From NCBI GenBank assembly GCA_012839215.1, contig DUNV01000061.1, positions 1 to 56,091 of the forward strand: a stretch of 56,091 bases of DNA. Reading direction: 5' to 3'. The notes under the pieces were generated by a model. The model searched no databases. It was not told the origin of the DNA and saw only the letters and a program-made list of their open reading frames with translations. This stretch comes from Bacillota bacterium (GTDB lineage Bacteria > Bacillota > Dethiobacteria > DTU022 > UBA8154). The translations under genes and the position numbers were made by a program. This document shows, piece by piece, positions 475 to 56,091 of the stretch; position 1 is the first letter of the stretch, and each line of letters starts with the position of its first letter.

Positions 475-519
475 ATTATCACACTCTATTTCAAAAAAAA
501 TCCCGGGTTCCCCCGGGTT

Positions 520-1150: not shown

Positions 1151-1159
1151 TGCGCCTCC

Positions 1160-1474: not shown

Positions 1475-1477
1475 AAA

Positions 1478-1565
1478 TTATTTCGCCCCTTTTCGCCTAG
1501 ACTCGCCAGCCAAGGGTACCCCTTGAGGGGATTTGACAAACCCTGCCTGAGCGGTTGATGACACT
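1478..1565 (-). promoter_or_regulatory. rplU 5' leader, candidate L21-leader-type autoregulatory RNA
   Basis: About 90-nt untranslated leader between the promoter and the rplU ATG. It contains the hairpin CCCCU-CA-AGGGG and flanking complementary GC-rich segments. The call rests on position only; no covariance model was run. Confidence 0.35.
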
Positions 1566-1570
1566 GAAAT

Positions 1571-1599
1571 ATTGTAGCATGTCAAAAAATCGTTGTCAA
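1571..1599 (-). promoter_or_regulatory. Sigma-A type promoter of the rplU-prp-rpmA operon
   Basis: The minus strand reads TTGACA (1599-1594), a 17-nt spacer, then TACAAT (1576-1571). Confidence 0.55.
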
Positions 1600-1730
1600 C
1601 TGAGCAGCGCCATCCCCGGAGCCGGGAACTGATCCCCCCCCAACGCCACCCGGGTTGGATAGTAAATAGTAGCCGATGGCATAGATAGAAAAGCCTTTTA
1701 CATACAACGCCGGTTCCCAATTTGTGCTGT

Positions 1731-1877
1731 TTAAGTAATATATTCACCGTCAAACATTGGGGTTTGGTTTGAGGCAATAAAACCGACCTGATCCCCGTGG
1801 TAACGATAGACAATGCAGGAGGGCCTGCCTTGGATCTTCTGCGGGATTGGGATGGTTATTTTAATGGGATTGTTCAT
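1731..1877 (-). CDS. Hypothetical small protein (48 aa), below the track length cutoff
   Basis: ATG at 1875-1877 to TAA at 1731-1733 gives MNNPIKITIPIPQKIQGRPSCIVYRYHGDQVGFIASNQTPMFDGEYIT. The frame is also open upstream to a TTG. The SD is weak and I recognise no family. Confidence 0.25.
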   Translation of the reverse strand: MNNPIKITIPIPQKIQGRPSCIVYRYHGDQVGFIASNQTPMFDGEYIT

Positions 1878-1957
1878 CCAGCCAATTTTTCCTTTATAGC
1901 CCAAACAAATAATACCATGTTTCCCCGTGCCCGGCTATCCCTGCCATCTTTTCAGCT

Positions 1958-3151
1958 TTATACGCTGACTATCTCCTCAGGGTAAACCACAAGCTTTTCC
2001 AGGTGGCGGCCATTAAAATAAACGGTGTTTTCTATTCCCGCTATGGCCGATCCTTTAAAGAGGATTTTTGGTTCCAGGGCAAAAACCATCCCCTCTGCCA
2101 GGGGATAGTGCTGCCTGGCGGTGAGTACGGGAAGCTCGTCCAATTCAAGCCCTACCCCGTGGCCGACAAAACCGGCCTTTTCACTACCATAACCCATAAA
2201 ATTTTCCTCGTAACCCATTTCCCTGGCCAGGTCAAAGGCCAACTTAGCAAGTTCAGAAGAGGGAACTCCCGGCTTGGCCGCCTCAATAACTTCATCGTGG
2301 ATAAGCAGTGCATCCCGGTGAGCCTTCTTTAGGGCCCCGGGGGGATCGCCTAAACAGAAAATCCGGGTGTTGTCCACACAGTAACCACCATATACAGCAA
2401 CATAATCCACAAGGACAACATCGCCCTTCTCTATCACTTTCCTGCCGGGCCCTTGGGGGTAAGCAGGGGATAGCCCCGGACCCCCGGTAGGTCCATCGAA
2501 GAATGATGAAAAGGTAATATTGGCTCCCGACATGATATGGCCATAAAAGACCTCCTGGTTGTACTGGCGCATACGCACGGCCCCCTGGTGCCCCAAGGTG
2601 CGCGCCAGATGTTCCAGATCTGCGGCAAACTCGATTTCCCTTTTCCCGGCCTTTAGAAAATGGGGTACGGCCTGCAGCATTTTTTGGCTTACCTCCGCCC
2701 CTTTTCTCATAATTCCCAGTTCATAGGAACTTTTGTACATGCGCAGCTCCCTAATCAACAAGGAAATGTCTACCAGTTCCGCGCCGGTAAAAGTATCCCG
2801 GTAGCGTAAATAAAGGGCTGTTGGCAAAACGTCCAGCTCCATGCCTAATTTTTTAAAGGAACCGGCTATCTCCTGCACCTTGGCAGGGAGCTCCTTAAAA
2901 CCCCTTTGGTATTCCACCCGGGCAAGGGGTGTTTCCATTTTGGCCCTATCAAAACTCCTGGTAACCAGGTAGCAAGCCTCCCCTTTTGCCGGAACAACGA
3001 GGTGCCCCTTCTGGCAACTGCCGGTAAAATAAAAGAGGTCTGCGTTTTGTGTGATCAAGGCACCATCGATCCCTTTTTTCTGCAACTCGCCTTGCAGTTT
3101 GGCAATCCTGCTTTCAATTTCCTTTTTCGGTGTGGTTTCCAAAGTTTCCAT
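1958..3151 (-). CDS. M24-family Xaa-Pro aminopeptidase (creatinase-like N domain plus pita-bread fold)
   Basis: 397 aa. The C-terminal half has VLVDYVAVYGGYCVDNTR, HGVGLELDE and the ALEP...IENT metal-ligand pattern of M24B peptidases. Confidence 0.85.
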   Translation of the reverse strand: METLETTPKKEIESRIAKLQGELQKKGIDGALITQNADLFYFTGSCQKGHLVVPAKGEACYLVTRSFDRAKMETPLARVEYQRGFKELPAKVQEIAGSFKKLGMELDVLPTALYLRYRDTFTGAELVDISLLIRELRMYKSSYELGIMRKGAEVSQKMLQAVPHFLKAGKREIEFAADLEHLARTLGHQGAVRMRQYNQEVFYGHIMSGANITFSSFFDGPTGGPGLSPAYPQGPGRKVIEKGDVVLVDYVAVYGGYCVDNTRIFCLGDPPGALKKAHRDALLIHDEVIEAAKPGVPSSELAKLAFDLAREMGYEENFMGYGSEKAGFVGHGVGLELDELPVLTARQHYPLAEGMVFALEPKILFKGSAIAGIENTVYFNGRHLEKLVVYPEEIVSV

Positions 3152-3246
3152 GCCTCCTGTTACGATTCTGTTCCCACACCTTTATTCTACCATGATTAAC
3201 CTATTTGACGCGGGAAAAACACCCCTTAAATAGCCATTTGGCGACA

Positions 3247-3275
3247 TTGAACAAATTTTCCCACGGTATTATAAT
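3247..3275 (+). promoter_or_regulatory. Sigma-A type promoter
   Basis: TTGAAC (3247-3252), a 17-nt spacer, then TATAAT (3270-3275). Confidence 0.5.
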
Positions 3276-3326
3276 CGAAAAGGGGGTGTTTTAACAGTAG
3301 AGCAAAAATTCTGCCAAAGCTGCGCC

Positions 3327-3575
3327 ATGCCTTTGGACGGTACTAAGGAAATGTACGGGACAAACAGCGATTGCTATGCGGATGGGCAATTTACCGCCGA
3401 TTGTTCTATAGAAGAAATGATTGAATTTTGCATCCCCCATATGGTTTCCGCAAATCCGCAGATCGGTGAGGGAAAAGCCCGAAAGATGATGAAAGAACTT
3501 TTCCCACCCTTAAACGCTGGCGGAAGCAGGGGAAACCAAAGCCGGCCGGAGCACAACTGCCCGGTCGGCTTTTGA
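3327..3575 (+). CDS. Putative zinc-ribbon domain protein (Zn_ribbon_2-like), probably degenerate
   Basis: MPLDGTKEMYGTNSD...DGQFTADCSIEEMIEFCIPHMV matches the CQSCGMPL...YG family. The first CxxC (CQSC, 3312-3323) lies in frame upstream of the only ATG. See findings. Confidence 0.5.
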   Translation: MPLDGTKEMYGTNSDCYADGQFTADCSIEEMIEFCIPHMVSANPQIGEGKARKMMKELFPPLNAGGSRGNQSRPEHNCPVGF

Positions 3576-3607
3576 AAATAGTATATCAATTCCTACCGAT
3601 AAAAGTC

Positions 3608-4219
3608 CTAGTCGTCAAATGCCTCGCTGACCTTCCATTCCTTCCAAATATTGCCTACGAGATCTGGGCTTGGTTTAAGAGTTTTCTTTCCTGGTTTCCA
3701 TCCTGAAGGGGTTGCCTCAGCCCCTTGCGATTCCCGAACGAGTTGAAAAGCCTTGATTTGGCGAACCGATTCACTGATATTTCTTCCCACCGGGGGGGTG
3801 AGAACCTCGAACCCCTGAATGATGCCGTCCGGATCGATGATAAATCTGCCCCGGGTTTCCACACCCGTGTCTTCATCGTAGATCCCATACATTTTGCCTA
3901 TGCTGCCATCCTGATCAGATAGCATCGGGAAGGGAATATCCTTATTAATCATTTTAGACAGTTCATGCTCATTCCACATTTTATGCACGTAGATGCTATC
4001 GACGCTGATGGTCAGCACTTCCACACCGAGCTTTTGCATTTCTTCATATTTTTCAGCAACTGCTGAAACTTCAGTTGCTCAAACGAAGGTAAAATCACCC
4101 GGATAGAAACAGATAAGTACCCATTTACCAATATATTCGGAAAGACTGACATTCATAAATTTGCCCTGATAATATGCCGATGCGGTAAAATCAGGTGCCG
4201 CCTTGCCGACTTTCACCAT
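3608..4219 (-). CDS. prxU: Selenocysteine-containing peroxiredoxin (AhpC/Prx1 type) with in-frame UGA at 4079-4081 (codon 47)
   Basis: Track ORFs 4079..4354 and 3608..4039 share one frame. Read through, they give [11 protein letters not shown]...[38 protein letters not shown].... A strong SD (AAGAGGAGGGG) sits 8 nt before the ATG at 4217-4219. A hairpin follows the UGA immediately. Confidence 0.85.
4056..4078 (-). promoter_or_regulatory. SECIS-like stem-loop directly 3' of the prxU UGA
   Basis: The mRNA reads UGA-GCAACUG-AAGUUUCAG-CAGUUGC, a 7-bp perfect stem. An alternative upper stem CUGAA/UUCAG puts GU at the apex. Confidence 0.6.
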
Positions 4220-4605
4220 AACATTCCCCTCCTCTTTTAATGGTAGCACGCCCTGGGAAACGGCTTCATCCACCTTTGGCTTTTTGATTTCCGGCCGCTG
4301 GCAACCAGGCCTAAACTCCTCTGCCAATAACTTTGACCTCCTTATCATAATCATTTTTAAGGAATATTGTTTTGCAACTGATTAAGGGTATTATACTATA
4401 CCATCCCAAAAGAAACAACGATTTTATAACAATTTTTGAAGGTAGAGTGACGGAGGTGGCAAGGGGGCGGGGTTGCTGCCACCAATACTGATATCTTTGA
4501 TCTGTTCCCCGTAGATTTCGGAATATGTACTGGTGATAGCACCCTCGTCCCCTTATCATTCTGGGATGAGAAAATTTTCAGGAGGTTTGAATAAGGTCAT
4601 GACAG

Positions 4606-4911
4606 ATGGGGGAATTGCTAGAACAGATAGTTGTAAAAGTTAGTGAAATAGATACAAAAATAGAAAACTTGGATGCAAAGGTTGAAAGCCCGGGCGAAAA
4701 GATTGAAAGCTTGGGCGAAAAGGTTGAAAGCCTTAATGCAAAGGTAGAAAGCTTGGGCGAAAAGGTTGAAAGCCTGGAGCTGGAAGTAAAGGACATCCAA
4801 CTAACACCCGAAAATGAGACGAATAAAAATATTCGTTTGATTGTGGAAGGCCATTTTGGTTTAAACCGCGAAATAGGGTTGGTTGCCAGGGCGGATATAA
4901 ACGGGAATTGA
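4606..4911 (+). CDS. Heptad-repeat (coiled-coil) hypothetical protein
   Basis: 101 aa with KVSEIDT KIENLDA KVESPGE KIESLGE KVESLNA KVESLGE KVESLEL repeats. V/I sits at heptad position a and L at position d. The C-terminal tail has no family I recognise. Confidence 0.55.
   Translation: MGELLEQIVVKVSEIDTKIENLDAKVESPGEKIESLGEKVESLNAKVESLGEKVESLELEVKDIQLTPENETNKNIRLIVEGHFGLNREIGLVARADINGN
4636..4782 (+). repeat. In-frame 21-bp tandem repeat array (5 near-identical units at 4678-4782, preceded by 2 degenerate units)
   Basis: The unit is aaggttgaaagcttgggcgaa, repeated head to tail. The units are contiguous with no spacers, so this is not a CRISPR. Confidence 0.9.
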
Positions 4912-4925
4912 CGAAACAAGTGCAT

Positions 4926-4954
4926 AAAAAATCCTGCTCTCTGCAAACTGCAGG
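4926..4954 (-). terminator. Rho-independent terminator (minus strand)
   Basis: The minus transcript reads CCUGC-AGUUUGCAGAGA-GCAGG-A-UUUUUU. An alternative stem is CUGCA-GUU-UGCAG. Confidence 0.6.
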
Positions 4955-4969
4955 CCTTTAGCAAAATGC

Positions 4970-5044
4970 TCAGCAACCAACCGCTGCAGCCAGCATTAAC
5001 AAGACCATTAAAATGGAAATGCCAATAGCTACTATTTTCGGCAT
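4970..5044 (-). CDS. Micro-ORF (24 aa) resembling a lipoprotein signal peptide, ending Cys-UGA
   Basis: MPKIVAIGISILMVLLMLAAAVGC then TGA. The SD GGGGG is 7 nt upstream of the ATG. An extended -10 (TGtTAAAAT) lies at 5097-5105 on the minus strand. The terminator at 4926-4954 follows. Confidence 0.4.
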   Translation of the reverse strand: MPKIVAIGISILMVLLMLAAAVGC

Positions 5045-5150
5045 GATTATTCCCCCTTTCGCCTCAGCAAGTCGCGCTTCCATTAAAAACAGTTATATTT
5101 TAACATAAATTTGCTTTTTTGCACAGGTGCCTGGCACCTTCCGAAATTTG

Positions 5151-7655
5151 TTATCCTTCTTGTAGGTTTTTAACTTTCTCCACCAAAAAACCTGTCAGGG
5201 ATTCGGAAATCTCTTCGGTAAAGCCTTCCCCATAGATGCGGTAGGAAGGTTTTTCCGGATCGGGAAGTACGAGGGCCCACCCATTGGGGTAAAAGTATTT
5301 CACCCCATCAAAAAGTTCGATCCGTTCCGCCTTGCCCGGACCTTCCTCCACAAGACGCCTCATAACCCTCCCCTTTTGCCCCCACGGGCAGAATACTTCC
5401 CTTTGCTGCAAACGTATCCCAGGTATTTCCTCCAGCAGGTTCGAAAGGCTTTTTTCCTCCCGGGCCAGGCAGTCAAGAATTTTAAAAAGGGCAGTCATGG
5501 CATCGAGCTGTAGGTAATCTGCCGGGCGGTATTCCTTCTTGCCGGAGGACTCACCCCGCTGGGTTTCCCATAATTTTTCCTGAAAATGACGTGGCATTGT
5601 TTTGCTACGAAGAATTTGCCCCTTGTTTCTCCGGGCCAGTTCCTCATGGACCCATGAGGCAAAAAAGGGTTGGACAAGCGTAGGGGCTTTGCCTCCCCTC
5701 AAGATCAAAAGGGAAAGCAACGCCTGATAGATTTCACCGGATATTTCATACCCCTCACCATCAAACAAAAGCATTTCTTCGCCGCTGGGGGACATCCAAA
5801 GACCAAGATCGGCCTTTTCCTTGATAATATTTCTGGAAAAGTCCTTTTTTAGGCGGGCAAACTCGTCTTGTTGCCAACAGATAGGCTCTTTTTTACCCGG
5901 ATAGTGGGCAACAGTGAGCCTGCACTCCAGCTCCTGGAAAAGCGGGGTTAAAAAATTGTCTACATGGGGAGCGGGGAAGGCCAGCAGAATTGAAAAGTGG
6001 AAATCCCTGATACGCTGCACAGCCAAATCCCTTTGCAGCGCCCGGGCATAGATCCGATTATAGCCCGGAATTTGCTTGATCGTCCCCAAATTTTCCCTTA
6101 GGGCCCGGGGGAAATCATCCCGGGAGTGGATTTGTTCGAGCTTTCGTTCATCCCCATGGGAAAGCCGCAATCCCTCGTTATCAAAGAAAAGGATAACACA
6201 ATGCCCGGCATGCTCCGAGCAGGAATGAACATAGATGCCCCCCCTGGCCTGCATTTCATTGATGGACATGCGCAGTGCTGGTGCAAAAGTGGTCCCAATA
6301 TCTAAAACATCAGCACCACCAGCCATCAGGCCGGCATCGAGTACCCTTTTCAGGAGCTGGGAGGGTCCAAAGGAGTCAGCACCAGTTACCATGGGAACAT
6401 CCCCGCCCCTTAGGAAAGCAAAAGCGGATCCAAGCCGAAGAGTACTCTCCAGGGCCAGATCGCTGTGTATTTCCCCCTCAACCCCGCTACTGCCAAAAAG
6501 CGATCGCCGGGCTTTGCCCCCCCAAATCAAATTGTTATGCACAATGGCACCGCTTTCGACTCTTTTAAAAGGCCACAGTTTAACCCCGGGTTTCAGGAGC
6601 GCCCCGTCTTCCACAACAGTTTTGTCCCCGATAACTGCCCCCTCATAGATCATTGCCCCCTTGCCCAGCCTGGCACCTCCGGCGAGCATGCCGCCACGCA
6701 CCACTGCCCCTTCCCCGATGCTCACCTGCGACCAGGTAATACCCCGCTTAATTGAGGCTTTATCAGCCAGACGGCTATGGGAACCAATAGCCGTATAACC
6801 ACCCAAATACACATTCGGGCCAATGTAGCATCCCTTCCCTATATAGAGGGGGGAAACAAGACTTGCTGTTGGATCGAGCTGGACATCATCAGCAATCCAT
6901 AAGCCCGGTTTTTTTTCCCAGGCATGCAGATTTACCTTAACCTTTTTGCCAAGGACATCATAATTGGTCTGACGATACTGCTCCAGGTTGCCTATATCAC
7001 ACCAGTACCCCTCCAGGGAACATCCATAAAGGGCCTTTCCTTCTTTGAGGAGCAAGGGGAATAGATCTTTGCTAAAATCGAATTTTTTCCCCGGCGGTAT
7101 GTAGTCCAGCACTTCCGGCTCAATGATATATATTCCTGTGTTTACCGTATCGCTGAAAACCTCGCCCCAGCTGGGTTTTTCCAAAAACCTGATAATCTTT
7201 CCTTCTTCATTGACCATGACCACCCCATATTCCAGTGGATTATCCTGGGGGGTAAGCACGATGGTTACAAAAGCCCCTTTTTGGCGGTGAAAGGCGATGG
7301 CCTCGCCGAGATTTATATCTGTTAGGCAATCTCCGCTAATCACCAAAAACGTTTCGTCCAAAAAAGAGGATGCATTTTTAACGCTGCCAGCCGTGCCCAG
7401 GGGTTCGTCCTCTAAAAAATAATGGAGAGAAACTCCATGGGAGAGGCCATCCCCAAAGTAATCCCCGATTTGCTCGGGAAGATATTGGAGTGTTACTGCC
7501 TGTTCCCTGATCCCATGCTCTACCAAAAGTTCAATGATATACTCCATGATGGGGCGATCCATAAGAGGTACCATCGGCTTGGGTCGATCACAAGTCAGCG
7601 GGCGCAACCTGGCACCCTCTCCCCCGGCCATGATGACAGCTTTCAAAAAAAACAT
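5151..7655 (-). CDS. Sugar-1-phosphate nucleotidyltransferase (mannose-1-P guanylyltransferase-like) with a left-handed beta-helix, fused to a phosphohexomutase-like C-terminal half
   Basis: The N terminus [26 protein letters not shown] is the NTP-transferase signature. Hexapeptide repeats occupy the middle. The C-terminal 450 aa align in pattern to PGM/PMM (FGSSGVEGE...), but the active-site motifs are altered. Confidence 0.85.
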
Positions 7656-7805
7656 CCCCTTCCTGTTATTTTACGGTAACTTATTAGCTTTAATAGTTAT
7701 TATAACCGTAAGCAGGCCGGGTTAGCCTTCGGGAAAGCAAATCCCATTCCACCAGCAAAAAATTTTGTTTATGAGGTTTCCGTTAGAAAAAGGTATCCCA
7801 TTGGT

Positions 7806-10028
7806 TTACCTGGTAAGGCTTTCCAGCACGGCCCGTGCGCTGTCTTTATGGAGGGGCTCATTGTTGTTGCCGCATTTGGGGGAAATAATACACTTGGGGC
7901 ACCCATCCTGGCATGGGCACTCCCTGATAACCTCCAGGGCTTTGGCGGTAAGGACCTCATAATTTTGGTAAAGACGCCGAGAAATACCTATCCCCTCAGG
8001 AAAAGCATCATAAAGAAATAGCTGGCGGGAGGCCGTGCAAACTCCACCCAGATCCCAACGGTCACACATAGCCAGCAGGGGTGCAACGCCAATGAGCAGG
8101 TGCTCTACCGCATGTAGCCCACCGGCAGGATCATTAACTGCTAATTTACTAAAATTTATCCAGATTCCTTCCGTGGTATATTGAAGAGAAAGTGGTCTTT
8201 CCAGGGTGTTTTTTGCCAGCGTTTTACTGAAGGAACGCAGGTTATAACCGTAAACTTCTTCGTCGACCGTAACCCTGCCATAGTGCAAATCGTAGCCGGC
8301 AACCATTCTGGTCCCCAGGACTTCATCAATCTTTACCCTGGTTTCCCTGAGTGGTGTCGTGTAGGTATCCTTATCAAATGGTTTTAGCTTAATTCTGTGG
8401 AAACCCTCATCAAAATCAACAACTTGGTAGGATTCAGCCCGGTGAAGGAAGATGGCCCCGGGGTGGGCCTCGCTGTAAGCCTGCCTTCTGCTCAGCTCCT
8501 CAAGAACCTGCCCATCACAGATTAGCCTATAGCTGCTCCCCTCAATATCGCTGAGACTAACCTTAAAAAAAGAACCACTTCCGTTATAGCGATAACTTTT
8601 TGTGGAGGCAGATGGCCGTCTAGCCTGCTGGTGGCTCTGGAAGGGGCGGATGGCCTTTTCCCTAATGAGTTCACCCACCATACGCTCATATTCCCCCCCA
8701 AACCACCCTGCATCCTCTTTCACCAGGGGAAGCTCCTCGGCGGCGCACATGATATGATTTTTGAGAATCTGCCTGTTCTCCAAGGAAATAATGGCCTGTT
8801 CACTAGGTTCTTCAAAAAGGTAGTGGGGGTTGGCCTGAAGATAGGTATCGAGGGGGTTATCAAAAAGGATTTGCACAACCAGGCTTTCCTGTCCGAGGCG
8901 TCCAGCACGACCCGCCCGCTGATGAAAGGAGGAGATAGTCCCTGGGTAGCCCCCGAGTACCACCACATCCAACCCGCCTATATTGATACCCAGTTCTAGG
9001 GCATTCGTGGAGATAATACCGGCAATTTGTTTTTCTTTAAATTTCTTTTCCAGCTTTCTTCTATCCTCGGGAAGATAACCCGCCCGGTAGGGAACAATCT
9101 CGCGGTCCGTAACCAGCTTGTTGGCCCAGGCCGCCGTCAATTCAGCCATCTTCCTACTAACGGAGAAACAAAGGGTCTGCAGACCATGTTGCACGCTGGC
9201 GGCGGTCAGCTCCGCCGTTTGTAGATGCTGGGAATGATCAGGCTTTCGCGAGGTATCCCAAAAGAGGTACGTTTTTTTCCCCCGGGAACTGCCATCCCTG
9301 TTAACCAATTCAAAATCTTTACCGGTTAATAGCGCGGCGTGCTCCAGGGGATCGGCCATAGTAGCCGAGGAAATAATAAATTGCGGATCGCCCCCATAAT
9401 ATTCCAGGATCCGGCGCAAGCGGCGCAACAAAAAAGCCACATTGGTACCAAATATCCCTCGGTACCAATGTGCCTCATCAATAACAACAAGACGCAACTT
9501 GCGGAAAAAGCCCTTCCACAGCCTATGCCATGCTAGATAATAATGCAAGGCATGGGGATTGCTGAGAATGAGACGTGAATTTTCCCGTATGGACCTGCGC
9601 CTTTCCTTAGGCGTATCGCCATCATAAACGGCGGCCCCCAGCTGGGTAGATGTTTCCTTCTCTAACTCCCTGATCTCCTTGAGCTGATCGTAGGAAAGCG
9701 CCTTCATGGGATAAAGGATCAAGGCAGAAGAGTTAGGAACTTTCAGAAGCTGTTCGAATATAGGTATGGTGAAAGCAAGGGTTTTGCCGGAAGCAGTGGA
9801 GGTAACCAGAGCCACGTTGCTCCCGGAACGCACCTTTTCGATCACTTCGGCCTGATGGCTGTAAAGATATATCTGCTTCCTGCGCAGATACTGCTGCAGG
9901 GCAGCAGGCAATTTACTACTTAGCTTGCCATACCGGGGAGGCACCTCTGCCTTTTCAATAATGGTAGCAACTTGTTTCCTCAGCTCTTTACTGCCTTGAA
10001 TAGTACTAATAAGGTTCCGAATGGACAT
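7806..10028 (-). CDS. DEAD/DEAH-box helicase with a C-terminal DUF1998 4-Cys zinc module (MrfA/YprA-like)
   Basis: Contains TSTASGKTLAF (Walker A), VVIDEAH, QRAGRAGR and the C-terminal CPCQDGCPKCIISPKCGNNNEPL. Confidence 0.85.
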   Translation of the reverse strand: MSIRNLISTIQGSKELRKQVATIIEKAEVPPRYGKLSSKLPAALQQYLRRKQIYLYSHQAEVIEKVRSGSNVALVTSTASGKTLAFTIPIFEQLLKVPNSSALILYPMKALSYDQLKEIRELEKETSTQLGAAVYDGDTPKERRRSIRENSRLILSNPHALHYYLAWHRLWKGFFRKLRLVVIDEAHWYRGIFGTNVAFLLRRLRRILEYYGGDPQFIISSATMADPLEHAALLTGKDFELVNRDGSSRGKKTYLFWDTSRKPDHSQHLQTAELTAASVQHGLQTLCFSVSRKMAELTAAWANKLVTDREIVPYRAGYLPEDRRKLEKKFKEKQIAGIISTNALELGINIGGLDVVVLGGYPGTISSFHQRAGRAGRLGQESLVVQILFDNPLDTYLQANPHYLFEEPSEQAIISLENRQILKNHIMCAAEELPLVKEDAGWFGGEYERMVGELIREKAIRPFQSHQQARRPSASTKSYRYNGSGSFFKVSLSDIEGSSYRLICDGQVLEELSRRQAYSEAHPGAIFLHRAESYQVVDFDEGFHRIKLKPFDKDTYTTPLRETRVKIDEVLGTRMVAGYDLHYGRVTVDEEVYGYNLRSFSKTLAKNTLERPLSLQYTTEGIWINFSKLAVNDPAGGLHAVEHLLIGVAPLLAMCDRWDLGGVCTASRQLFLYDAFPEGIGISRRLYQNYEVLTAKALEVIRECPCQDGCPKCIISPKCGNNNEPLHKDSARAVLESLTR

Positions 10029-10098: not shown

Positions 10099-11724
10099 CT
10101 ATGTTTCTCTCAACATTCTGCGTAACAGTTTTCCGGAGGAGCTTTTGGGAATTTCATCCAAGATTTTAATGCTTTTCGGGCATTTGAAGGCAGCAAGGTG
10201 TTGCCGGCAAAGGGCAATCAGTTCTTCTACCGAGCTTTGTTCGCCATCCTTCAGGGCGACGAAGGCAGCAACCTCCTCGCCATAGAGTTCATCGGGAATA
10301 CCTAGACATGCCGCGTCCTTTACCGCCTTGTGGCGATAAAGGACTTCCTCTATCTCCCTGGGGTAGATATTCTCACCGCCTCTAATGATCATATCGGTTT
10401 TACGATCGACGATAAAGAAATAACCATCCTCATCAAAATAGCCAATATCTCCCGTATAAAACCATCCATCCACAAAGGCAGCCTCGGTGGCCCCGGGATT
10501 TTTATAATACCCCTTCATAACATTTTCACCGCGGACGATTATCTCTCCCCGCTCGTTGGGGCCGAGAAATTTTCCTGTTTCATCTACCACCCGCATTTCA
10601 TTTCCCAGGGGCAAACCCACCGAACCAATCTTTCTATAGCCGTCGTCTTGACCATAAACTGCCTTTCCCGGCGGCGGCAAAAGGTTAAATGTAGAACGGC
10701 AGGTCGTTTCTGTCATCCCGTATCCCTCGATGACCGGCACTTGAAAAGTGGTTTCAAACTTTATTTGCACCTCCCGGGGGACAGGGGCTGAACCACAAAA
10801 AACAATCTTCAAGTGGCTGTCCTCCGGCCTATCCTCTGCTGTCCTTTTGTTTAGCAACATGGAAAGCATTGTGGCCACGGTCCCTGTATATGTTACTCCG
10901 TAATCGCCGATATGTTTGAAAAAGTTTCTTACGCTAAATCTCCTAGGCAGCACAATGCTCCCACCGTGATAGAGTGGTGTCATAACTGTGACGATCTGCC
11001 CGTTAATATGGAAAAGGGGCATAACACACATGGCGCGGTCCGCTTCCTTCAACCCCATGCGGGCCACGATCCAGTGAGCGTCAATGATCATATTATGGTG
11101 TGTGAGCATGGCCCCTTTGGGCCTACCAGTCGTCCCGGAGGTATACATAATCTGTGCCACATCGTCAGGTGCCAGGGGGACATCTAATATCTCCTGCCGA
11201 AGTTCTGTTTTCTCCCGCGCCAGGAGGGGGCGGGGACTGATCAGCTTCCCGGTGCCCATTTTGGGTGAAAATCCTTGCGGCAAATCCCAGGCTAGTAAAA
11301 TAATGTCGAGCTTTTCCGCCAGCAACACTTGCTCTGCCTGCTGCAGGCAATCCTCTGAGGCAAACAGGGCCACGCTATCCGAATTGCGCAAAATATAACC
11401 GATCTCCTCAGTTTTTAGGTTGATATTCAAGGGAATGATCACCGCACCCAGTTGAATAATGCCAAAGTAGGACCACAGATATTCAGGGCTGTTTGACATA
11501 AAAATTGTCACCTTATCCCCCGGTCTGATACCCTGGTTCCAAAGCAGATTGCTCACCCCGTTGACCTTCTCCAAAAATTCATCATAGGAATATCCTCTTT
11601 TTACCATAGGATCGTAAAGGAAAGGTTTTGCACCATAATAGGAACACCTGTCGTGCAGCAACATGCGGCAGGTCATCTTTTCCTCCAACACCGGCAACCC
11701 TGCTGGTTTCATGTAGTTTTCCAT
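10099..11724 (-). CDS. AMP-dependent acyl-CoA synthetase/ligase (long-chain fatty acid-CoA ligase-like)
   Basis: Contains MYTSGTTGRPKGAMLTHHN, GYGMTET, YTGDIGYFDEDGYFFIVDRKTDMIIRGGENIYP and SSGKLLRR. Confidence 0.9.
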   Translation of the reverse strand: MENYMKPAGLPVLEEKMTCRMLLHDRCSYYGAKPFLYDPMVKRGYSYDEFLEKVNGVSNLLWNQGIRPGDKVTIFMSNSPEYLWSYFGIIQLGAVIIPLNINLKTEEIGYILRNSDSVALFASEDCLQQAEQVLLAEKLDIILLAWDLPQGFSPKMGTGKLISPRPLLAREKTELRQEILDVPLAPDDVAQIMYTSGTTGRPKGAMLTHHNMIIDAHWIVARMGLKEADRAMCVMPLFHINGQIVTVMTPLYHGGSIVLPRRFSVRNFFKHIGDYGVTYTGTVATMLSMLLNKRTAEDRPEDSHLKIVFCGSAPVPREVQIKFETTFQVPVIEGYGMTETTCRSTFNLLPPPGKAVYGQDDGYRKIGSVGLPLGNEMRVVDETGKFLGPNERGEIIVRGENVMKGYYKNPGATEAAFVDGWFYTGDIGYFDEDGYFFIVDRKTDMIIRGGENIYPREIEEVLYRHKAVKDAACLGIPDELYGEEVAAFVALKDGEQSSVEELIALCRQHLAAFKCPKSIKILDEIPKSSSGKLLRRMLRET

Positions 11725-50230: not shown

Positions 50231-51589
50231 ATGCCAAGATCTTTTAAATATTTTAGGTTAGTTTTCATTCTTTTTTGCCTGGTGTTTTTTTGCACCGGCA
50301 ATTGCCACCCGGCCCATGCCGCAAGGACAATTTTTAGCGTTGATTCATATGATTGGGCACCGCTTGGTTCCACTGTTACTGTTGATATCTACGTTGAGGA
50401 TCCCCGGCAGCTTTATGGATGCAGCTTTGAATTACATTATGATGAGAATATCGTCCGCGCCGTTAGCGTGGAAAAAGGCAATCTCCTTTTTGCTGAAGGC
50501 CATAGATTAAATGCTGATTTAAACAGGGCCGATGGGGGTATCATATCGATCTATTGGAACAACGTATACAATAATCCTGTTCCCTATGATGGACAACTTT
50601 TCCGCATTTCTTTTAGGGTTTTAAACGAGGGAGGAACCACGCTAACCCTGCGGGGCCTAAATCCGTTGGAAAAATACAGCAACGGGGCAAGCCCGGAGAT
50701 CCGGAATGGTTTCATCAACACATCAGCTACCGGAAACACCTCCCTGGGGATTAACACTGGCTCTTACCTGCCTGGTGCTATTCGCCAGATCTGGTATTCC
50801 ACAACCTTGTCGGCCAAGGGGGGCCGGACCCCCTATACCTGGTCGCGGACAAGTGGAAGCCTGCCACCGGGGCTAACCCTTGACAGCGATGGGACAATTT
50901 CGGGAACTCCTATTTCCACGGGCACCTATAGCATCACAATACGCCTCAGCGATGATAACGGCCACCAGATAAGCAGGACCTTTTATCTGACCGTACATGA
51001 CACCGGGGAAATTCCCTTGGCCATTACCAGCTACGCCACGCTAGATCGGGGAAGAAAAGGCAGTTCCTATACAGCCACCCTGTCGGCCAGAGGGGGCAAC
51101 ACACCCTATAGCTGGTCAAGAACAAGTGGGAGCCTACCCCCGGGCCTGACCCTGAACAGCCGCGGGGTAATTTCCGGGACCCCCACTGCCACGGGCACCT
51201 ACACCTTTACCGCACGCGTCACGGATGATAATAACGCCCGCCAGGAGGAGCAATTTCTACTCACTATTTTGGATACGGATACAGATTACCTTACCTCTGA
51301 TGAGGACCTTTTCAAAGTACTGCATATAACACGCAGCACCATGAAACTGGATCTTAGGCCGGATAATATGCCTTATACTATGCTTGTAAACAACGATGTA
51401 AACTGGATCAACCTTTCAATTGTCCCCCATCATCCTTCGGATTGGCTGCGCATCAACGGAACCTCTTATTACAGGGGATCCCTGCGGACAGTACCTCTCA
51501 GCAAGGGTACAAACCAGATCACCATTGGCATTTCTTCAACCGGGAACAATTATCATAATTACAGCCTGACCATTTATCGCCTGCCATAG
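50231..51589 (+). CDS. Secreted protein: cohesin-like domain, 2 He_PIG Ig-like domains and a cadherin-like beta-sandwich
   Basis: Signal peptide ending AHA. Cohesin pattern (GSTVTVDIYVEDPRQLYGCSFELHYDENIV). Two copies of ...TLSA.GG.TPY.WSRTSGSLPPGLTL.S.G.ISGTP...GTY. The C-terminal segment ends ...NQITIGISSTGNNYHNYSLTIYR. Confidence 0.75.
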   Translation: MPRSFKYFRLVFILFCLVFFCTGNCHPAHAARTIFSVDSYDWAPLGSTVTVDIYVEDPRQLYGCSFELHYDENIVRAVSVEKGNLLFAEGHRLNADLNRADGGIISIYWNNVYNNPVPYDGQLFRISFRVLNEGGTTLTLRGLNPLEKYSNGASPEIRNGFINTSATGNTSLGINTGSYLPGAIRQIWYSTTLSAKGGRTPYTWSRTSGSLPPGLTLDSDGTISGTPISTGTYSITIRLSDDNGHQISRTFYLTVHDTGEIPLAITSYATLDRGRKGSSYTATLSARGGNTPYSWSRTSGSLPPGLTLNSRGVISGTPTATGTYTFTARVTDDNNARQEEQFLLTILDTDTDYLTSDEDLFKVLHITRSTMKLDLRPDNMPYTMLVNNDVNWINLSIVPHHPSDWLRINGTSYYRGSLRTVPLSKGTNQITIGISSTGNNYHNYSLTIYRLP

Positions 51590-51630
51590 TTTTCCACACC
51601 TAGCCCTTAAAATTGCGGAGGAGGACGAAG

Positions 51631-53904
51631 ATGCCCATGCCGGAATCGAAAACAATCAATAAAATAAATAATCCTTTTAATAAGAAAAACAGAAATAGAA
51701 ACGGTGAAAGTTTTCCCATTCTACCGTTTTCGTTGCTATTATCGTTGTTGCTGTTGACCTTTGCCGCCTTTTCCCTCTGCCCGGCCATACAAACAGCACA
51801 GGCACAGGAAGTCGTCCATTTTTCCGATCGCCAACTGGAAGCAGCAGTTCGTCAGACACTAGATCGCCCAACAGGCATTCTGTCAGGCGCTGATCTTTCC
51901 CGCCTGCAAACGCTCAATGCTTCCCGGCAGGACATCACCGATCTTTCCGGGTTGGAGTATGCTGTCAATCTGCAAAACCTCAACCTTTATGAAAACAACG
52001 TGCAAAATTTGGCCCCCCTGGAGGGCCTCACCCGCCTGCAAATTTTGGATCTGGCCGGCAACAACATCGCCGGGATCAGTTCCCTGCAAAGGCTTACAGC
52101 ACTGGAGGAATTAAACCTCAGCCATAACAACCTTGGAAATATTGACGCCCTAAAAAATCTATCGCGCCTCAAAACGCTCCGGCTCGAAGGAAATCAAATC
52201 GGCACACTCGCCCCACTGGAGCCTTTACGCAACTTGCAAAGCCTTGCCCTAAGCGGCAACATAACGGACAAGAACGCCGCATCCCTCGCCCGGCTCACCA
52301 GGCTTGAACATCTGTCGATGACAGGAGGGCAGCTCAGCGATGGTACTTTTTTGTCCAATTTAAAGCAGTTGAAAACACTTGAGCTAGAGGACAACCGCAT
52401 TGCCAAAATCGATCCCCTCAAGGGCCTTTCGCGGCTGGAACAACTTTCCCTGGCAGGCAATCAGATAGAAGATCTTACACCCCTTAGTGGGCTGCGCCAA
52501 CTGAGGCAGTTGGACCTCAGTAATAACAGGATACGCGAAATAACCCCTCTTCTCAGGCTGCGCAATATCCAGTGGCTGGAGTTGCAAAACAATTTTCTGG
52601 AGCTGGCGGAAGGCAAACAGGCCCGCAAGGATGTAGATAAGCTATTAGAAACAGGCACAGAGGTCATCACCAACCCCCAAAAATTGCCGCTGTACCGTGG
52701 CAACGGACTCATCGTAGCAGCGGAGGGCTCCGGGGGTAAACTTTTGCGCACCCCCATAGAGAATTATTTTACCATACTCAACCGGAACGCCGGTTGGAGA
52801 ATCAAAGGTTTTACTGTAACGCACGAAGGAGGCAAACCCTTGGACCGCCTAGGCGAAGTGGGCCTCCGGACCACCGGCCTCCGGGGCACCAGCTCTTTCG
52901 CCTGGCAATCTATCAACCATGACAACAGCGTTGGCAATAAGGATACAGATTTTTTTACAATTACGTATCGCCAGTCCGGACCTGTCCAAATCGGGCTGGC
53001 CATGCAGATTTGGCCCGGTTACGCCGACGATTCTGAGCGGGCCTTCTATATATCCCAAGTCATTTTGGAAAATGTGGAGACGAAAGATCTTTATACCGTA
53101 GAATTGGAACGAACCCCGCCATTACAAAGCAACCAGGGTTCATCCCAAACAGACAGTGCCCTGCTGGATTTTCAGGAACAATCATCCCGCAACAAGGCAG
53201 CACTAAGGCGAGCCCTCGCCGGGGCCCTGGAACAGAGAGCCACCACGCTGGAAGTGCGCTATAGCGGCGAAACACTGCAGATGCCCAGGGAACTTGAAAA
53301 TATGTTGGAAGAGATCCTCGCTGAAGATGACTATTTACATTACTCCCAAAGCAGCCAAAAGATCAGCTGGGCAAAGCAACCTGGCGGGGAACTGCTCCTG
53401 GACTTCCGTTTCAACTATTTAGCCACCCGGGAGGAAGAAAATATCGTTAATTCCCAAGTAGACCGCATCCTCAAGGAAATCATTAAACCAGAAATGGATA
53501 AACACCAAAAAACAAGGGCCATACACGACTTTATCGTTGCCAACGTAGCCTATGACCTAAGTTACCGTGAACACTCGTCCTACTCTGCCCTTATCAAGGG
53601 CCGGGCCGTCTGTCAGGGCTATGCCCTGCTGATGTATAAAATGCTGCAGGGGGCAGGCATAGAAGTGCGAATTATTTCCGGCAGGGCAGGCGGGGAAGAA
53701 CATGCTTGGAACTTGGTCAGGCTGGACGGGAACTGGTACCATATTGACGCCACCTGGGATGATCCCGTACCCGATACCCCCGGAAGGATCCTTTATGATT
53801 ACTACAACCGCACCGATGCACAGATGGCAGCCACCCACACCTGGGAACGGGGCCTCTACCCGGCAGCACAAACAGCCTATCCACAAGAAAGACTGCCGCA
53901 ATAA
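51631..53904 (+). CDS. Secreted leucine-rich-repeat protein with a C-terminal transglutaminase-like Cys protease core
   Basis: SD GGAGGAGG before the ATG at 51631. Signal peptide ending AQA. About 10 LRRs of 22 aa (LxxLxLxxNxIxxIxxL). The C-terminal AVCQGYALLMY...EEHAWNLVRLDGNWYHIDATWDDP provides the Cys-His-Asp triad. Confidence 0.8.
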   Translation: MPMPESKTINKINNPFNKKNRNRNGESFPILPFSLLLSLLLLTFAAFSLCPAIQTAQAQEVVHFSDRQLEAAVRQTLDRPTGILSGADLSRLQTLNASRQDITDLSGLEYAVNLQNLNLYENNVQNLAPLEGLTRLQILDLAGNNIAGISSLQRLTALEELNLSHNNLGNIDALKNLSRLKTLRLEGNQIGTLAPLEPLRNLQSLALSGNITDKNAASLARLTRLEHLSMTGGQLSDGTFLSNLKQLKTLELEDNRIAKIDPLKGLSRLEQLSLAGNQIEDLTPLSGLRQLRQLDLSNNRIREITPLLRLRNIQWLELQNNFLELAEGKQARKDVDKLLETGTEVITNPQKLPLYRGNGLIVAAEGSGGKLLRTPIENYFTILNRNAGWRIKGFTVTHEGGKPLDRLGEVGLRTTGLRGTSSFAWQSINHDNSVGNKDTDFFTITYRQSGPVQIGLAMQIWPGYADDSERAFYISQVILENVETKDLYTVELERTPPLQSNQGSSQTDSALLDFQEQSSRNKAALRRALAGALEQRATTLEVRYSGETLQMPRELENMLEEILAEDDYLHYSQSSQKISWAKQPGGELLLDFRFNYLATREEENIVNSQVDRILKEIIKPEMDKHQKTRAIHDFIVANVAYDLSYREHSSYSALIKGRAVCQGYALLMYKMLQGAGIEVRIISGRAGGEEHAWNLVRLDGNWYHIDATWDDPVPDTPGRILYDYYNRTDAQMAATHTWERGLYPAAQTAYPQERLPQ

Positions 53905-53997
53905 CCCCTGGATTACCAAACAGAAACTAAATATTCCCGTCCAAGTAATCATAGGCATCACCTCCCCTACAAGGGAAAGTGACTAACCGCCAAACGG

Positions 53998-54021
53998 CAA
54001 CCCTCAAATTATTATAGCACA
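53998..54021. repeat. Direct repeat, copy 1 (caaccctcaaattattatagcaca)
   Basis: 24 of 25 positions identical to copy 2 at 54180-54204. The minus strand of the repeat reads TGTGCTATAAT, an extended -10. Confidence 0.8.
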
Positions 54022-54063
54022 AAAATTATCGCCTTCATCGTTTTCTGGGACGCCCCCAGGCAG

Positions 54064-54092
54064 TTGACGAATAATTCTGAGCGTGATATCAT
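54064..54092 (+). promoter_or_regulatory. Sigma-A promoter with extended -10
   Basis: TTGACG (54064-54069), a 17-nt spacer containing TGa, then TATCAT (54087-54092). Confidence 0.45.
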
Positions 54093-54098
54093 ATAATT

Positions 54099-54180
54099 AA
54101 CAAAAGGAGTTGCCGCTTTTGAACGGGCGGCTAGTCCGAATAAGGTCTAGACCGCCTTAACAGGCGGCCTTGTTATTTTC
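54099..54180 (+). ncRNA. Candidate orphan small RNA (three hairpins; the last is a terminator)
   Basis: H1 is GCCGC(54112-16)/GCGGC(54127-31). H2 is CTAGTCC(54131-37)/GGTCTAG(54144-50) with one mismatch. H3 is CCGCC(54152-56)-TTAACA-GGCGG(54163-67), followed by CCTTGTTATTTTC. No downstream plus-strand gene exists. I recognise no family. Confidence 0.3.
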
Positions 54181-54204
54181 AACCCCTCAAATTATTATAG
54201 CACA
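54180..54204. repeat. Direct repeat, copy 2 (caacccctcaaattattatagcaca)
   Basis: See copy 1. It carries one extra C. Confidence 0.8.
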
Positions 54205-54260
54205 TATTTTCGTATATCGGCAGGAGGAAAACATTAAACATCTATCGGTTTTTTCAATGT

Positions 54261-54301
54261 AAAAAATGGAGCGCACCTATCTATAAGGTAGGCAGGCTCC
54301 A
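54261..54301 (-). terminator. Rho-independent terminator of the minus-strand surface-protein genes
   Basis: The minus transcript reads UGGAGC...(partly paired interior)...GCUCCA-UUUUUU. Confidence 0.7.
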
Positions 54302-54340
54302 TAGAAATGCTGACATTTAATATTGGGGAACCGGTTTCCC

Positions 54341-55153
54341 CTAATCATCCCCGGTACTGCTACCACCACCTGACACCGGAAAGTCTTTAATTCCAATAAT
54401 CCCCGCCGCACACTGTGCGATAAGCAAAACATCATAAATCGTTAAATCACCTGGCTCTGCACCCTCGCCACGGCTGACGTTGCCGATATTTTTTTCCTCG
54501 GGAGTTAAACTTTTCTCCCCGATGACTGCACTCATAGCTATCACAGCATCAGCCACAGTAACTGATCCCGAATAATTCAGGTCCCCGTAGATTATTTTTA
54601 TATCTATTATCCCGCTCTCCACACTAGCAATGTTTATTGTATGTCCGCTGACATCAAAAGCTACAATATCTGTTATTTCAAATTCAAAGGGCCTTGAACC
54701 TTCCGACTTGTTATGCGTAAAGATGATATTGGCCAGTTGTAGTTGTAGTTGTTCGCCATTTTTCGGTTTTACAACGCATTGCTCTGCACCATCCTTAAGC
54801 ACATAAATACCCACATTAGCAGAAACTCCGTTTTTGGAAATATAGTAATCCATTTGCGTTTCTTTTGATAAACCTTTACCGGCAGTAATATCCGTTATTT
54901 TTACAGCATACCCTGCCTTGGGTATAACCTTAAATGATAGGGCAGCCACGGAGTCAAAGCCCTCAACTTCTATGGCTACCTTGACTTCCTTGTTCAGCCA
55001 CTGTACTTTCGATATTTCTATTTTTTCCTTCCCATCTGCAGCTTCAACCGTATTTGGCCCAGCCATGATGCCAGCTAACAAAAAATTTAGCAAACATAAA
55101 ATGAGAAAAACTGCTAAGGCCTTTTTCCCTAGGAAAATATATGCATGCTTCAT
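54341..55153 (-). CDS. Secreted protein with a cohesin-like domain and a C-terminal dockerin-like module
   Basis: SD AGGAGG 10 nt before the ATG at 55151-55153. Signal peptide ending VEA. A beta-rich cohesin-like region is followed by GDLNYSGSVTVADAVIAMSAVIG...GDLTIYDVLLIAQCAAG, two EF-hand-like dockerin segments of which the second is degenerate. Confidence 0.7.
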   Translation of the reverse strand: MKHAYIFLGKKALAVFLILCLLNFLLAGIMAGPNTVEAADGKEKIEISKVQWLNKEVKVAIEVEGFDSVAALSFKVIPKAGYAVKITDITAGKGLSKETQMDYYISKNGVSANVGIYVLKDGAEQCVVKPKNGEQLQLQLANIIFTHNKSEGSRPFEFEITDIVAFDVSGHTINIASVESGIIDIKIIYGDLNYSGSVTVADAVIAMSAVIGEKSLTPEEKNIGNVSRGEGAEPGDLTIYDVLLIAQCAAGIIGIKDFPVSGGGSSTGDD

Positions 55154-55182
55154 CAATAGCCTACCTCCTGTGATTAAAAAAT

Positions 55183-56091
55183 TTATTCTGTCATCGGCAG
55201 CACCGTAACAGCACAAACGGCAACATATTCCCCTTCTTCTGTGGTGGCACTGATAATAGTGTTTCCTTCCTTTAAAGGAGCTACAATTCCGCGCCCAACA
55301 GCATTTTTATATACCGTGGCTACACCAGTCTGGCTTGATTTCCAGCTAATACTTTTATTTGTGGCCATCTCTGGGCTGACATAGGCTGTTAAAATCCTCG
55401 GCGTGCTGCCTGCCACAAGCGTTAAAGTAGTAGCACTTAGACTAATCCCTGTAACAGGAGTATGGCCCTGCTTGACCGTTACCTTGCAGGTGTCCACATA
55501 GCCACCCTCCTCTGTGGCGGCAATAATAATAGCCGTTCCGGGGTTGACAGCCGAAATGACAGCTTCACCTTCGCCAGAGCCATAAACACCAGCAACAGAG
55601 GGAAAAGTAGAGTTCCAAATAATATTCCTGTTGATGGCATTTTCCGGAAACACTGTGGCTGCAATTGTTTCCGTTTCGCCCTCTTCCAGAAACAGTTCCC
55701 TGGTCTCCAGAGAAATTCCGCTGGCCGAAGCCAAAGAAATATTGATCACCTGCTGCCCGGCATCCCAATCGACCTCTGCCCCCAGGCTTTCGGCGAAAAA
55801 CCAGGCGGGTACCATGGTCGTACCCTTGATAAGCTGCGGCGCCACGTTGAGAATAACCTTTTCATCGTTGACAACGGCTATCCCATTATCAAGCTGAAGA
55901 TCCACTTTAATATTGCCCCTAGTGGCGGAAACTGTATTAGTTTCCTTTTCCCAGGAGATAACTGCACCCAGAAATTCATAAATAGGACGAAAGGGCAGCA
56001 TCGTTGTGTTCCCAAGACGGATCGGGGCTTGGGGCAGGGAAAGAAATTTGTCGTTAATCTTCACCCTGATTCCCCCTTCCGCTCCCTGAGC
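55183..56091 (-). CDS. Cell-surface protein (5' end outside the window): copper-amine-oxidase N-terminal-like domain plus two Big_2 Ig-like domains
   Basis: The frame stays open to the window edge (AQGAEGGIRVKINDK...). TTMLPFRPIYEFLGAVISWEKETNTV is the Cu_amine_oxidN1 pattern. Two Big_2-like units follow (GISL...L.L.EGET..I.ATV.PE.A.N..I.W.S). Confidence 0.75.
   Translation of the reverse strand, partial: AQGAEGGIRVKINDKFLSLPQAPIRLGNTTMLPFRPIYEFLGAVISWEKETNTVSATRGNIKVDLQLDNGIAVVNDEKVILNVAPQLIKGTTMVPAWFFAESLGAEVDWDAGQQVINISLASASGISLETRELFLEEGETETIAATVFPENAINRNIIWNSTFPSVAGVYGSGEGEAVISAVNPGTAIIIAATEEGGYVDTCKVTVKQGHTPVTGISLSATTLTLVAGSTPRILTAYVSPEMATNKSISWKSSQTGVATVYKNAVGRGIVAPLKEGNTIISATTEEGEYVAVCAVTVLPMTE

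Follow-up and report, generated by a model that had tools for sequence, protein, structure and literature searches.

Non-cellulosomal cohesin- and dockerin-like modules are already known as a kind: Peer et al. 2009 are said to have surveyed them in the three domains of life, and the proteins concerned, such as the one with the Archaeoglobus fulgidus cohesin 2xdh, are secreted, lack carbohydrate-active enzyme (CAZyme) domains and can hold both modules in one polypeptide. Such modules have been catalogued for years and, to our knowledge, almost none of them has an assigned role. Three further systems come close to the locus described here. OlpA and OlpC of Acetivibrio (Clostridium) thermocellum (3ul4, 4dh2) are small secreted proteins in which one type I cohesin and a wall-binding module display a dockerin partner; the adaptor scaffoldin ScaB of Acetivibrio cellulolyticus bridges an anchor and dockerin-bearing components; and in Ruminococcus flavefaciens FD-1 four SIGN-transglutaminase-like-Doc genes and one SIGN-LRR-Doc gene stand in one cluster, transglutaminase-like and leucine-rich repeat (LRR) proteins being recurrent dockerin-bearing components of the cohesin-dockerin system of that species (PMC2930009). 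Here we analyse a stretch of 56,091 nt, called the window (GenBank assembly GCA_012839215.1, contig DUNV01000061.1, positions 1 to 56,091), from an uncultured Bacillota bacterium of anaerobic digesters (lineage Dethiobacteria; DTU022; UBA8154). The window carries the right-hand two thirds of a locus of six surface-protein genes, p0 to p5, which may encode a small non-cellulosomal cohesin-dockerin surface assembly, a tentative reading from sequence to which we give a probability of roughly 0.45.

The locus can be set against each of these systems. Unlike the non-cellulosomal proteins known so far, it is compact and syntenic, with a conserved core and a co-inherited trio of genes, and it brings a candidate anchor built on the domain Cu_amine_oxidN1 and a dockerin with an enlarged second Ca2+ loop. 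Four of its proteins, p0, p1, p5 and p3, have an N-terminal cohesin, and the sole dockerin of the locus is on p3, immediately behind the p3 cohesin. Like ScaB, p3 joins both modules in one polypeptide, and the ScaB dockerin 4uyp_B is the best solved-structure sequence match of the p3 family profile (E 1e-4), the C-terminal FPV motif included; unlike ScaB, p3 has 270 aa, a single cohesin, almost no linker, no X-module and no enzymes to integrate. The likeness of p5 to OlpA and OlpC lies in the union of a cohesin with a putative wall module, and the p3 model has the cohesins of OlpC and OlpA among its best structural matches. Whereas OlpA and OlpC anchor through SLH domains and bind enzyme dockerins, p5 carries Cu_amine_oxidN1 and its proposed partner is a non-enzymatic adaptor. 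Pfam finds no SLH in p5, though SLH proteins exist elsewhere in the genome, and p5 is therefore at most an analogue of the anchoring scaffoldins OlpA, OlpC and SdbA, not a member. As in FD-1, transglutaminase-like cores and LRRs are genetically tied to a cohesin-dockerin system; in contrast to FD-1, the two are fused in p2 and come without a dockerin, the link to cohesins is one of operon and synteny only, and the organism is not cellulolytic by present evidence.

The protein on which the proposed pairing hinges is p3 (54341..55153, minus strand), secreted and encoded by the last gene of the minus-strand operon. The initial annotation had seen a cohesin-like and a dockerin-like module in it, a call that failed against Pfam, where p3 has no match even at E<=10, whole or split into halves; NCBIfam likewise returned nothing, and PF00404 gave no match at E<=10 to the isolated C-terminal 90 aa. 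Both modules were restored by hhalign, by orthologues, by a family profile and by AlphaFold2 with Foldseek. Aligned by hhalign to Pfam-verified cohesin-dockerin tandems, the p3 family matches over 191 columns and both modules (99.3% probability, E 7e-21). The orthologues P0005 and L024 reach 29.2 and 27.0 bits with Cohesin, above the Pfam gathering cut-off of 24.1 bits for PF00963 (22.9 bits for the type I dockerin, PF00404). In the close-family profile, positions 174-248 match 4uyp_B and other solved dockerins, and positions 36-173 match the solved cohesins 6kg8, 6kgc and 2xdh (E ~1e-3). From the single sequence AlphaFold2 gave no usable model (predicted local distance difference test, pLDDT, 40); with an alignment of 11 rows it predicts a nine-strand sandwich followed by three C-terminal helices (pLDDT 65.8). 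All 50 PDB matches listed by Foldseek for this model are cohesins, the best being 5nrm_A (E 4e-9, template modelling score, TM, 0.80), and OlpC, OlpA and the A. fulgidus cohesin 2xdh (E 1e-8, TM 0.76) are among them, with TM to target of at most 0.81. Because profile-profile comparison, orthologue scores, matches to solved structures and predicted fold agree, p3 is predicted to be a real, though very divergent, cohesin-dockerin tandem.

The predicted cohesin module, with the nine strands of the model, occupies residues ~40-185 (54599..55036, minus strand), and the dockerin module residues ~186-262 (54368..54598, minus strand). The first Ca2+ loop of the dockerin is canonical (DLNYSGSVTVAD, D191-L-N-Y-S-G-S-V-T-V-A-D202). 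The second runs from N225 to D241 and has 17 residues, owing to a 5-residue insertion common to the close family, and is followed by the conserved FPV motif; the dockerin helices of the model span residues 200-210, 218-224 and 239-249. Close relatives of p3 are few. A word-indexed search of 5.8 billion proteins returned p3 itself and one 91%-identical variant, or four proteins when the profile was used, and scans of metagenomes and genome contigs added few loci. An exhaustive HMMER search of 1.8 billion representatives gave 32 matches at E<=1e-3, including a close family (P0003-P0006, 38-52% identity) and three proteins, P0013, P0015 and P0020, in which a Pfam-significant Cohesin is directly followed by Dockerin_1; the C-terminal third of p3 has weaker matches to many proteins. 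Orthologues continue after the dockerin with a proline-rich linker and 100-230 additional residues, which the p3 of the window lacks, and a remnant of this extension was looked for downstream of the gene and none was seen.

The window is a complete contig (C28) of the source metagenome-assembled genome (MAG), hereafter G000, which has 2.06 Mb in 156 contigs. The four open reading frames p1, p2, p3 and p4 lie where the initial annotation had placed them, each with a signal-peptide-like N-terminus, and Pfam upholds its domain calls for p1, p2 and p4. What had been taken for a row of four consecutive genes is on two strands and forms two convergent operons, p1 to p2 on the plus strand and p4 to p3 on the minus strand; nor is the unit one of four genes, since p0 and p5 lie on the contigs C104 and C154. 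The p1-p2 gap is 41 nt, with GGAGGAGG 6-8 nt before the p2 ATG at 51631, and the p4-p3 gap is 30 nt, with AGGAGG before the p3 ATG. C104 has the order glmU-prs-ctc-pth-mfd, then p0, then the start of a next gene, and C154 (1872 bp) encodes p5 and the N-terminal part of p4. C154 shares 531 nt with the end of C104 (8459-8989), at 95.1% identity, and 642 nt with the window end (55450-56091), at 96.1% identity; overlapping both ends at 95-96%, it is a strain-variant contig that bridges C104 and the window, and the assembly break inside the locus, judged by these alignments, is due to co-existing strain variants. The complete order is mfd-p0-p5-p4-p3, converging with p2-p1 of the opposite strand, the six surface-protein genes standing directly after mfd, and all six products begin with a signal-peptide-like hydrophobic segment.

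Genome-wide, Pfam Cohesin has three matches in G000, namely p1, one protein on C104 and, weakly, one on C154, and all three of them, together with p3, fall within one locus of ~9 kb of a 2.06-Mb genome, a concentration beyond what chance would give; with Pfam and a custom hidden Markov model (HMM) no cohesin was detected elsewhere in the genome. The description of the locus as a non-cellulosomal cluster of secreted cohesin, dockerin, immunoglobulin-like (Ig-like) and LRR-transglutaminase proteins is supported, and so is the earlier remark that the four window proteins are free of glycoside hydrolases: in the six proteins of the locus Pfam finds no glycoside hydrolase, carbohydrate esterase, polysaccharide lyase or carbohydrate-binding module.

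Relatives show that the locus has two layers. We compared the 33 genomes of the GTDB family and the 149 genomes of the class; the relatives concerned are MAGs from anaerobic digesters, labelled "uncultured Dethiobacter sp." and "Bacillota bacterium", and the neighbourhood is syntenic in several genomes and genera. The same six-gene order after mfd is found in G005 (L017), in G007 and in G004, as well as in L026, a metagenome contig nearly identical to G004. Orthologues of p1, 48-60% identical and adjoining p2, are present in G004/L026, G005, G006, G009, G011, G028, G030 and G032, and several genera of the family share the syntenic arrangement of p1-p2 facing p4. This core occurs without p0, p5 and p3 in G006, of the same genus (mfd-p4/p2-p1, convergent), and in G009, G011, G028 and G032, of two other genera. 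By contrast each of the five genomes with p3, which belong to two genera, also has p0 and p5 beside it, and in G030, of a different genus, the three lie on a contig of their own, apart from the core. On the evidence of these gene neighbourhoods, p1, p2 and p4 are a conserved core and p0, p5 and p3 an accessory module that is invariably gained or lost as a unit. A p3-like cohesin-dockerin-He_PIG protein from another family in the class adjoins a small cohesin-only protein. The most widely conserved feature is the adjacency of p2 and p4, seen in either orientation in four genera of the family and in the distant relatives L048 (49% identity) and L049. In L048 (GCA_036681025.1 contig, 42-8891) p2 and p4 are co-oriented, and after them come two unassigned proteins, a DUF8042 protein and the flagellar genes flaG and fliD.

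The two layers differ in their rate of change. Between G000 and L026 identity is 81% for mfd, 79% for p4, 69% for p2, 60% for p1, 52% for p0, 45% for p5 and 27% for p3; the accessory genes evolve fastest, p3 above all, and within the genus p3 is 27-41% identical against 71-82% for p4. A contig of an ENA assembly (L045), 96.7% identical in nucleotides to the window, extends the comparison to a strain variant. In the p3 cohesin (residues 40-185) it shows 24.5 non-synonymous and 5.5 synonymous differences, a ratio of non-synonymous to synonymous rates (dN/dS) of 1.28, and all 22 amino-acid differences in p3 are inside the cohesin, many of them charge swaps. The 255 nt of the dockerin part have zero nucleotide changes, for which the probability at the p4 rate is 1.4e-4, and the dockerin is also the best-conserved part of the p3 family by its invariant columns. 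For p4 itself dN/dS is 0.12, with 9 non-synonymous against 22 synonymous differences, and the contrast in the two classes of change between the p3 cohesin (25 against 5 in whole numbers) and p4 is significant (Fisher p 2.6e-5). Positive selection on the p3 cohesin (omega above 1) is not significant (p 0.32). One of the 22 strain substitutions falls in the predicted strands 3, 5, 6 and 8, which form the 8-3-6-5 sheet through which cohesins bind dockerins, and six fall in the other sheet (Fisher p 0.11), at most a hint of such binding. Relaxed constraint, diversifying selection or cassette exchange could each drive the fast p3 cohesin; a frozen dockerin beside a fast-changing cohesin points, by these comparisons, to surface variation.

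A genome-wide PF00404 scan of G000 returned one protein only, a secreted S8 subtilase (Peptidase_S8) of 970 aa with a canonical C-terminal dockerin (G000:C40:3082-5994, L004). It is single-copy in 29 of the 33 family genomes, whereas cohesins occur in 14 of the 33 only, so its dockerin cannot depend on these cohesins. A custom HMM found no further p3-type dockerins in G000, though the same HMM missed the S8 dockerin too; across the class the p3-type dockerin matches proteins in 39 of the 149 genomes. In the congener G005, whose genome has 4.1 Mb, there are 26 matches to cohesin and 12 to dockerin. Nine of its proteins were scanned, at two loci (L043, C30:318000-330000, and L044, C17:192000-206000); they include a cohesin-SLH anchor and further proteins with both cohesin and dockerin, and the loci hold LRR and Ig-like proteins, Shr-like HID-dockerin proteins, an NHL beta-propeller with a cohesin and a purple-acid-phosphatase-like protein. 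None of the nine has a glycoside hydrolase domain. Read from these domain matches, G005 has a much larger non-cellulosomal cohesin-dockerin network in the same genus.

The two other accessory proteins both bear cohesins. A paralogue of p1, p0 (on C104) has 383 aa, with Cohesin (47.8 bits), He_PIG and Cadherin-like domains. The 301 aa of p5 (on C154) combine a Cohesin match of 18.6 bits, below the cut-off, with Cu_amine_oxidN1 at 107.5 bits; in p5 orthologues Cohesin scores 23.8-30 bits. Cu_amine_oxidN1 (PF07833) is present in a dozen or more proteins of G000, with NamZ exo-muramidase, Amidase_3 (together with SH3b and AMIN), GH18 and GH26 among its fusion partners. The surfaceome of Desulfotomaculum reducens has PF07833 proteins at the surface, and the domain is common in wall hydrolases (PMC4137172). 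As the domain is fused to peptidoglycan hydrolases in G000, p5 looks like a wall anchor, a plausible wall-bound analogue of the single-cohesin SLH anchors. The same domain is found in p4 (55183..>56091, minus strand), which stands upstream of p3 in the operon and whose N-terminus lies beyond the contig end; Pfam scores Cu_amine_oxidN1 at 101 bits and Big_2 at 57.8 bits in 2 stretches. In the strain variant L045 the full-length p4 has 331 aa. It is the best-conserved protein of the locus, with orthologues 61-82% identical that always adjoin p2. Another Cu_amine_oxidN1 protein of G000, of 349 aa, is encoded outside the locus, on G000:C129 around 11049-11324; its C-terminal region is cohesin-like by eye (...FEIAIGAPFVKGIHSYQLRFFYNPELIKIKDIK...) and has no Pfam Cohesin match at E<=0.001, and it may be a fifth, cryptic cohesin.

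The plus-strand operon encodes two core proteins. The first gene, p1 (50231..51589), specifies a secreted protein of 452 aa with a signal peptide, a cohesin (47.1 bits), two Ig-like He_PIG domains (100.9 bits, 2 stretches) and a Cadherin-like beta-sandwich (30.4 bits). The second, p2 (51631..53904), specifies a secreted 757-aa protein. It has ~10 or more LRRs, ~280 aa to which no domain is assigned, a helical part and a transglutaminase-like core; LRR_4 scores 114 bits over 7 stretches, each covering 2 repeats, and Transglut_core (PF01841) scores 58.5 bits against a cut-off of 23. The Cys-His-Asp triad of p2 is intact, its members in CQGYA (Cys), HAWN (His) and DATWDD (Asp) aligning with their counterparts in the transglutaminase-like protein 9crn_A, the nearest solved structure (E 2e-7). 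The C-terminal half of p2 is part of a large, widespread and uncharacterised family of secreted Firmicute transglutaminase-core proteins, relatives of which are elsewhere fused to Big_2, Big_5 or SLH. Class 1 internalins (NCBIfam NF033189 and relatives) were rejected for p2, the best score being 129.7 bits against a cut-off of 1600 and confined to the LRR region; by its profile matches p2 is an LRR protein, not an internalin.

Between the two operons lies a convergent intergenic region of 435 nt (53905..54340) that holds terminator-like hairpins of both and a pair of direct repeats of ~20 bp. Directly after p3, at 54260..54300 on the minus strand, a hairpin with a U-run resembles an intrinsic terminator and marks the end of the minus-strand operon; the RNA fold of 54250-54345 on that strand pairs GGAGCCUGCCUACC...GGUGCGCUCC, followed by AUUUUUU, with a z-score of -3.3. 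A terminator-like site on the plus strand follows the p1-p2 operon at 54152-54167. The repeat CCTCAAATTATTATAGCACA occurs twice, at ~53993 and ~54185, ~190 nt apart (53993-54204), and its copies flank G+C-rich hairpins and the site at 54152-54167; the stretch that they bracket could be a small inserted element or a small RNA unit. In one relative, represented by a Logan contig of SRR31357140 (L046, 2683-3423), a short-chain dehydrogenase gene lies between p3 and the convergent p2, which makes the spacer a site of gene gain. Promoter scans of the locus were uninformative.

How might these proteins work together? In the assembly that we favour, p5 would be the wall-bound anchor, a functional analogue of the single-cohesin SLH anchors OlpA and OlpC, and the dockerin of p3 would plug, in a Ca2+-dependent manner, into the cohesin of p5 or p0. 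The hypervariable p3 cohesin would thereby be left exposed and could capture a second dockerin, either that of another p3, giving head-to-tail chains, or that of the 970-aa S8 subtilase. Meanwhile p4 would keep Ig-like domains on the wall, and p2, beside p4 and the cohesin proteins, would be an LRR-targeted cysteine peptidase or cross-linker, linked to the cohesin proteins genetically, by its operon with p1 and its synteny with p4, and not through a dockerin. Laid upon the older p1-p2-p4 core, such a surface assembly would serve adhesion or surface display, not polysaccharide degradation. Given that p3 strictly co-occurs with p0 and p5, these two are the more likely partners of its dockerin. 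The initial annotation had suggested that the p3 dockerin, by plugging into either cohesin, might tether p2 to the cell surface, perhaps for cell-cell contact as in syntrophic aggregates. The core is conserved in genomes without p3, so this tethering cannot be the core function, and since neither p2 nor p4 has a dockerin, nothing found plugs either of them into a cohesin.

Several points weigh against such an assembly. A cohesin-like fold outside cellulosomes does not have to bind a dockerin. At least six genomes without p3 keep the core p1-p2-p4, and there the locus offers the p1 cohesin no dockerin as a partner. In G000 the p5 cohesin stays under the Pfam cut-off, we infer wall binding by Cu_amine_oxidN1 from its fusion partners, the p3 model is of moderate confidence, and the second loop of the p3 dockerin carries its insertion. 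As far as the genome counts go, the independence of the S8-subtilase dockerin weakens models that need the subtilase as a partner. A different explanation is a surface-protein island without internal pairing. In it the cohesins would be no more than N-terminal modules of adhesins, with a structural or ligand-binding role; the p3 dockerin, stabilised by Ca2+, would have some other binding partner or none; and the genes would be neighbours by shared regulation or co-acquisition. Dockerins of this lineage can lack partners, as the S8 subtilase shows in the many family genomes where no cohesin is detectable; the p1 cohesin persists in genomes without p3; Pfam matches three of the four cohesins weakly or in part; and a dN/dS of ~1.3 in the p3 cohesin, not significantly above 1, fits relaxed constraint. 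Several facts speak against such an island: p3 is accompanied by p0 and p5 in each of its five genomes, from two genera; another family has a cohesin-only gene adjoining a cohesin-dockerin gene; conservation within p3 is highest in the dockerin; every cohesin of G000 is in one locus; and the congener G005 has a large, functional-looking cohesin and dockerin repertoire with its cohesin-SLH anchor. We regard the island as possible but on the unlikely side.

The conserved core may also have work of its own. The LRR-directed p2 could act as a peptidase or cross-linker on or with the wall-bound p4 and p1 in remodelling of the wall or surface layer, with the trio as a later, dispensable add-on, an explanation that is compatible with the cohesin-dockerin assembly and that we judge unlikely as the principal account. 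The wide conservation of p2-p4 adjacency, the intact triad of p2, the strong purifying selection on p4 (dN/dS 0.12), the company that Cu_amine_oxidN1 keeps with peptidoglycan hydrolases and the core after mfd in G006, without p0, p5 and p3 in the same genus, all favour it; yet the transglutaminase-core subfamily of p2 has no known substrate, and both the p1 cohesin and the gathering of all cohesins at one locus would go unexplained. Going further than a limited assembly, p3 could be a self-assembling protomer whose dockerin enters the p5 cohesin and then the next p3, building a polymerising, variable coat for evasion of phages or predators or for partner recognition in digester aggregates. We consider this polymerisation doubtful, and equally so its corollary that exposed p3 cohesin faces and the variable C-terminal domains of the orthologues are swapped or diversified between strains. 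As for a cellulosome or another polysaccharide-degrading enzyme complex, the presence of cohesin and dockerin modules would bring it to mind, but it is rejected, and is highly improbable in our estimate, because the six proteins have no CAZyme domain, neither a glycoside hydrolase nor a carbohydrate-binding module; moreover the only Pfam-level dockerin of G000 is on an S8 subtilase, and the genome has one or two dockerins.

What is new here is the compact two-layer syntenic locus; the fusion of a cohesin to Cu_amine_oxidN1 as a candidate anchor; and a minimal cohesin-dockerin tandem, invisible to Pfam, with an enlarged second Ca2+ loop and a frozen dockerin beside a fast-evolving cohesin. Highly divergent tandems of this kind can escape Pfam entirely. 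Surveys of MAGs from anaerobic digesters use cohesins and dockerins as markers of polysaccharide degradation (PMC7038595), and such counts can mislead. The locus offers a minimal syntenic test case for non-cellulosomal modules: its four cohesins are accompanied by one adjacent dockerin, its candidate wall anchor is of a new type, and the partner hypothesis, p3 dockerin with p5 or p0 cohesin, is clear. Should p3 assemble with itself, cohesin-dockerin pairing would serve in these bacteria as a polymerising device for surface variation, and Cu_amine_oxidN1 would be a previously unrecognised anchor of scaffoldins.

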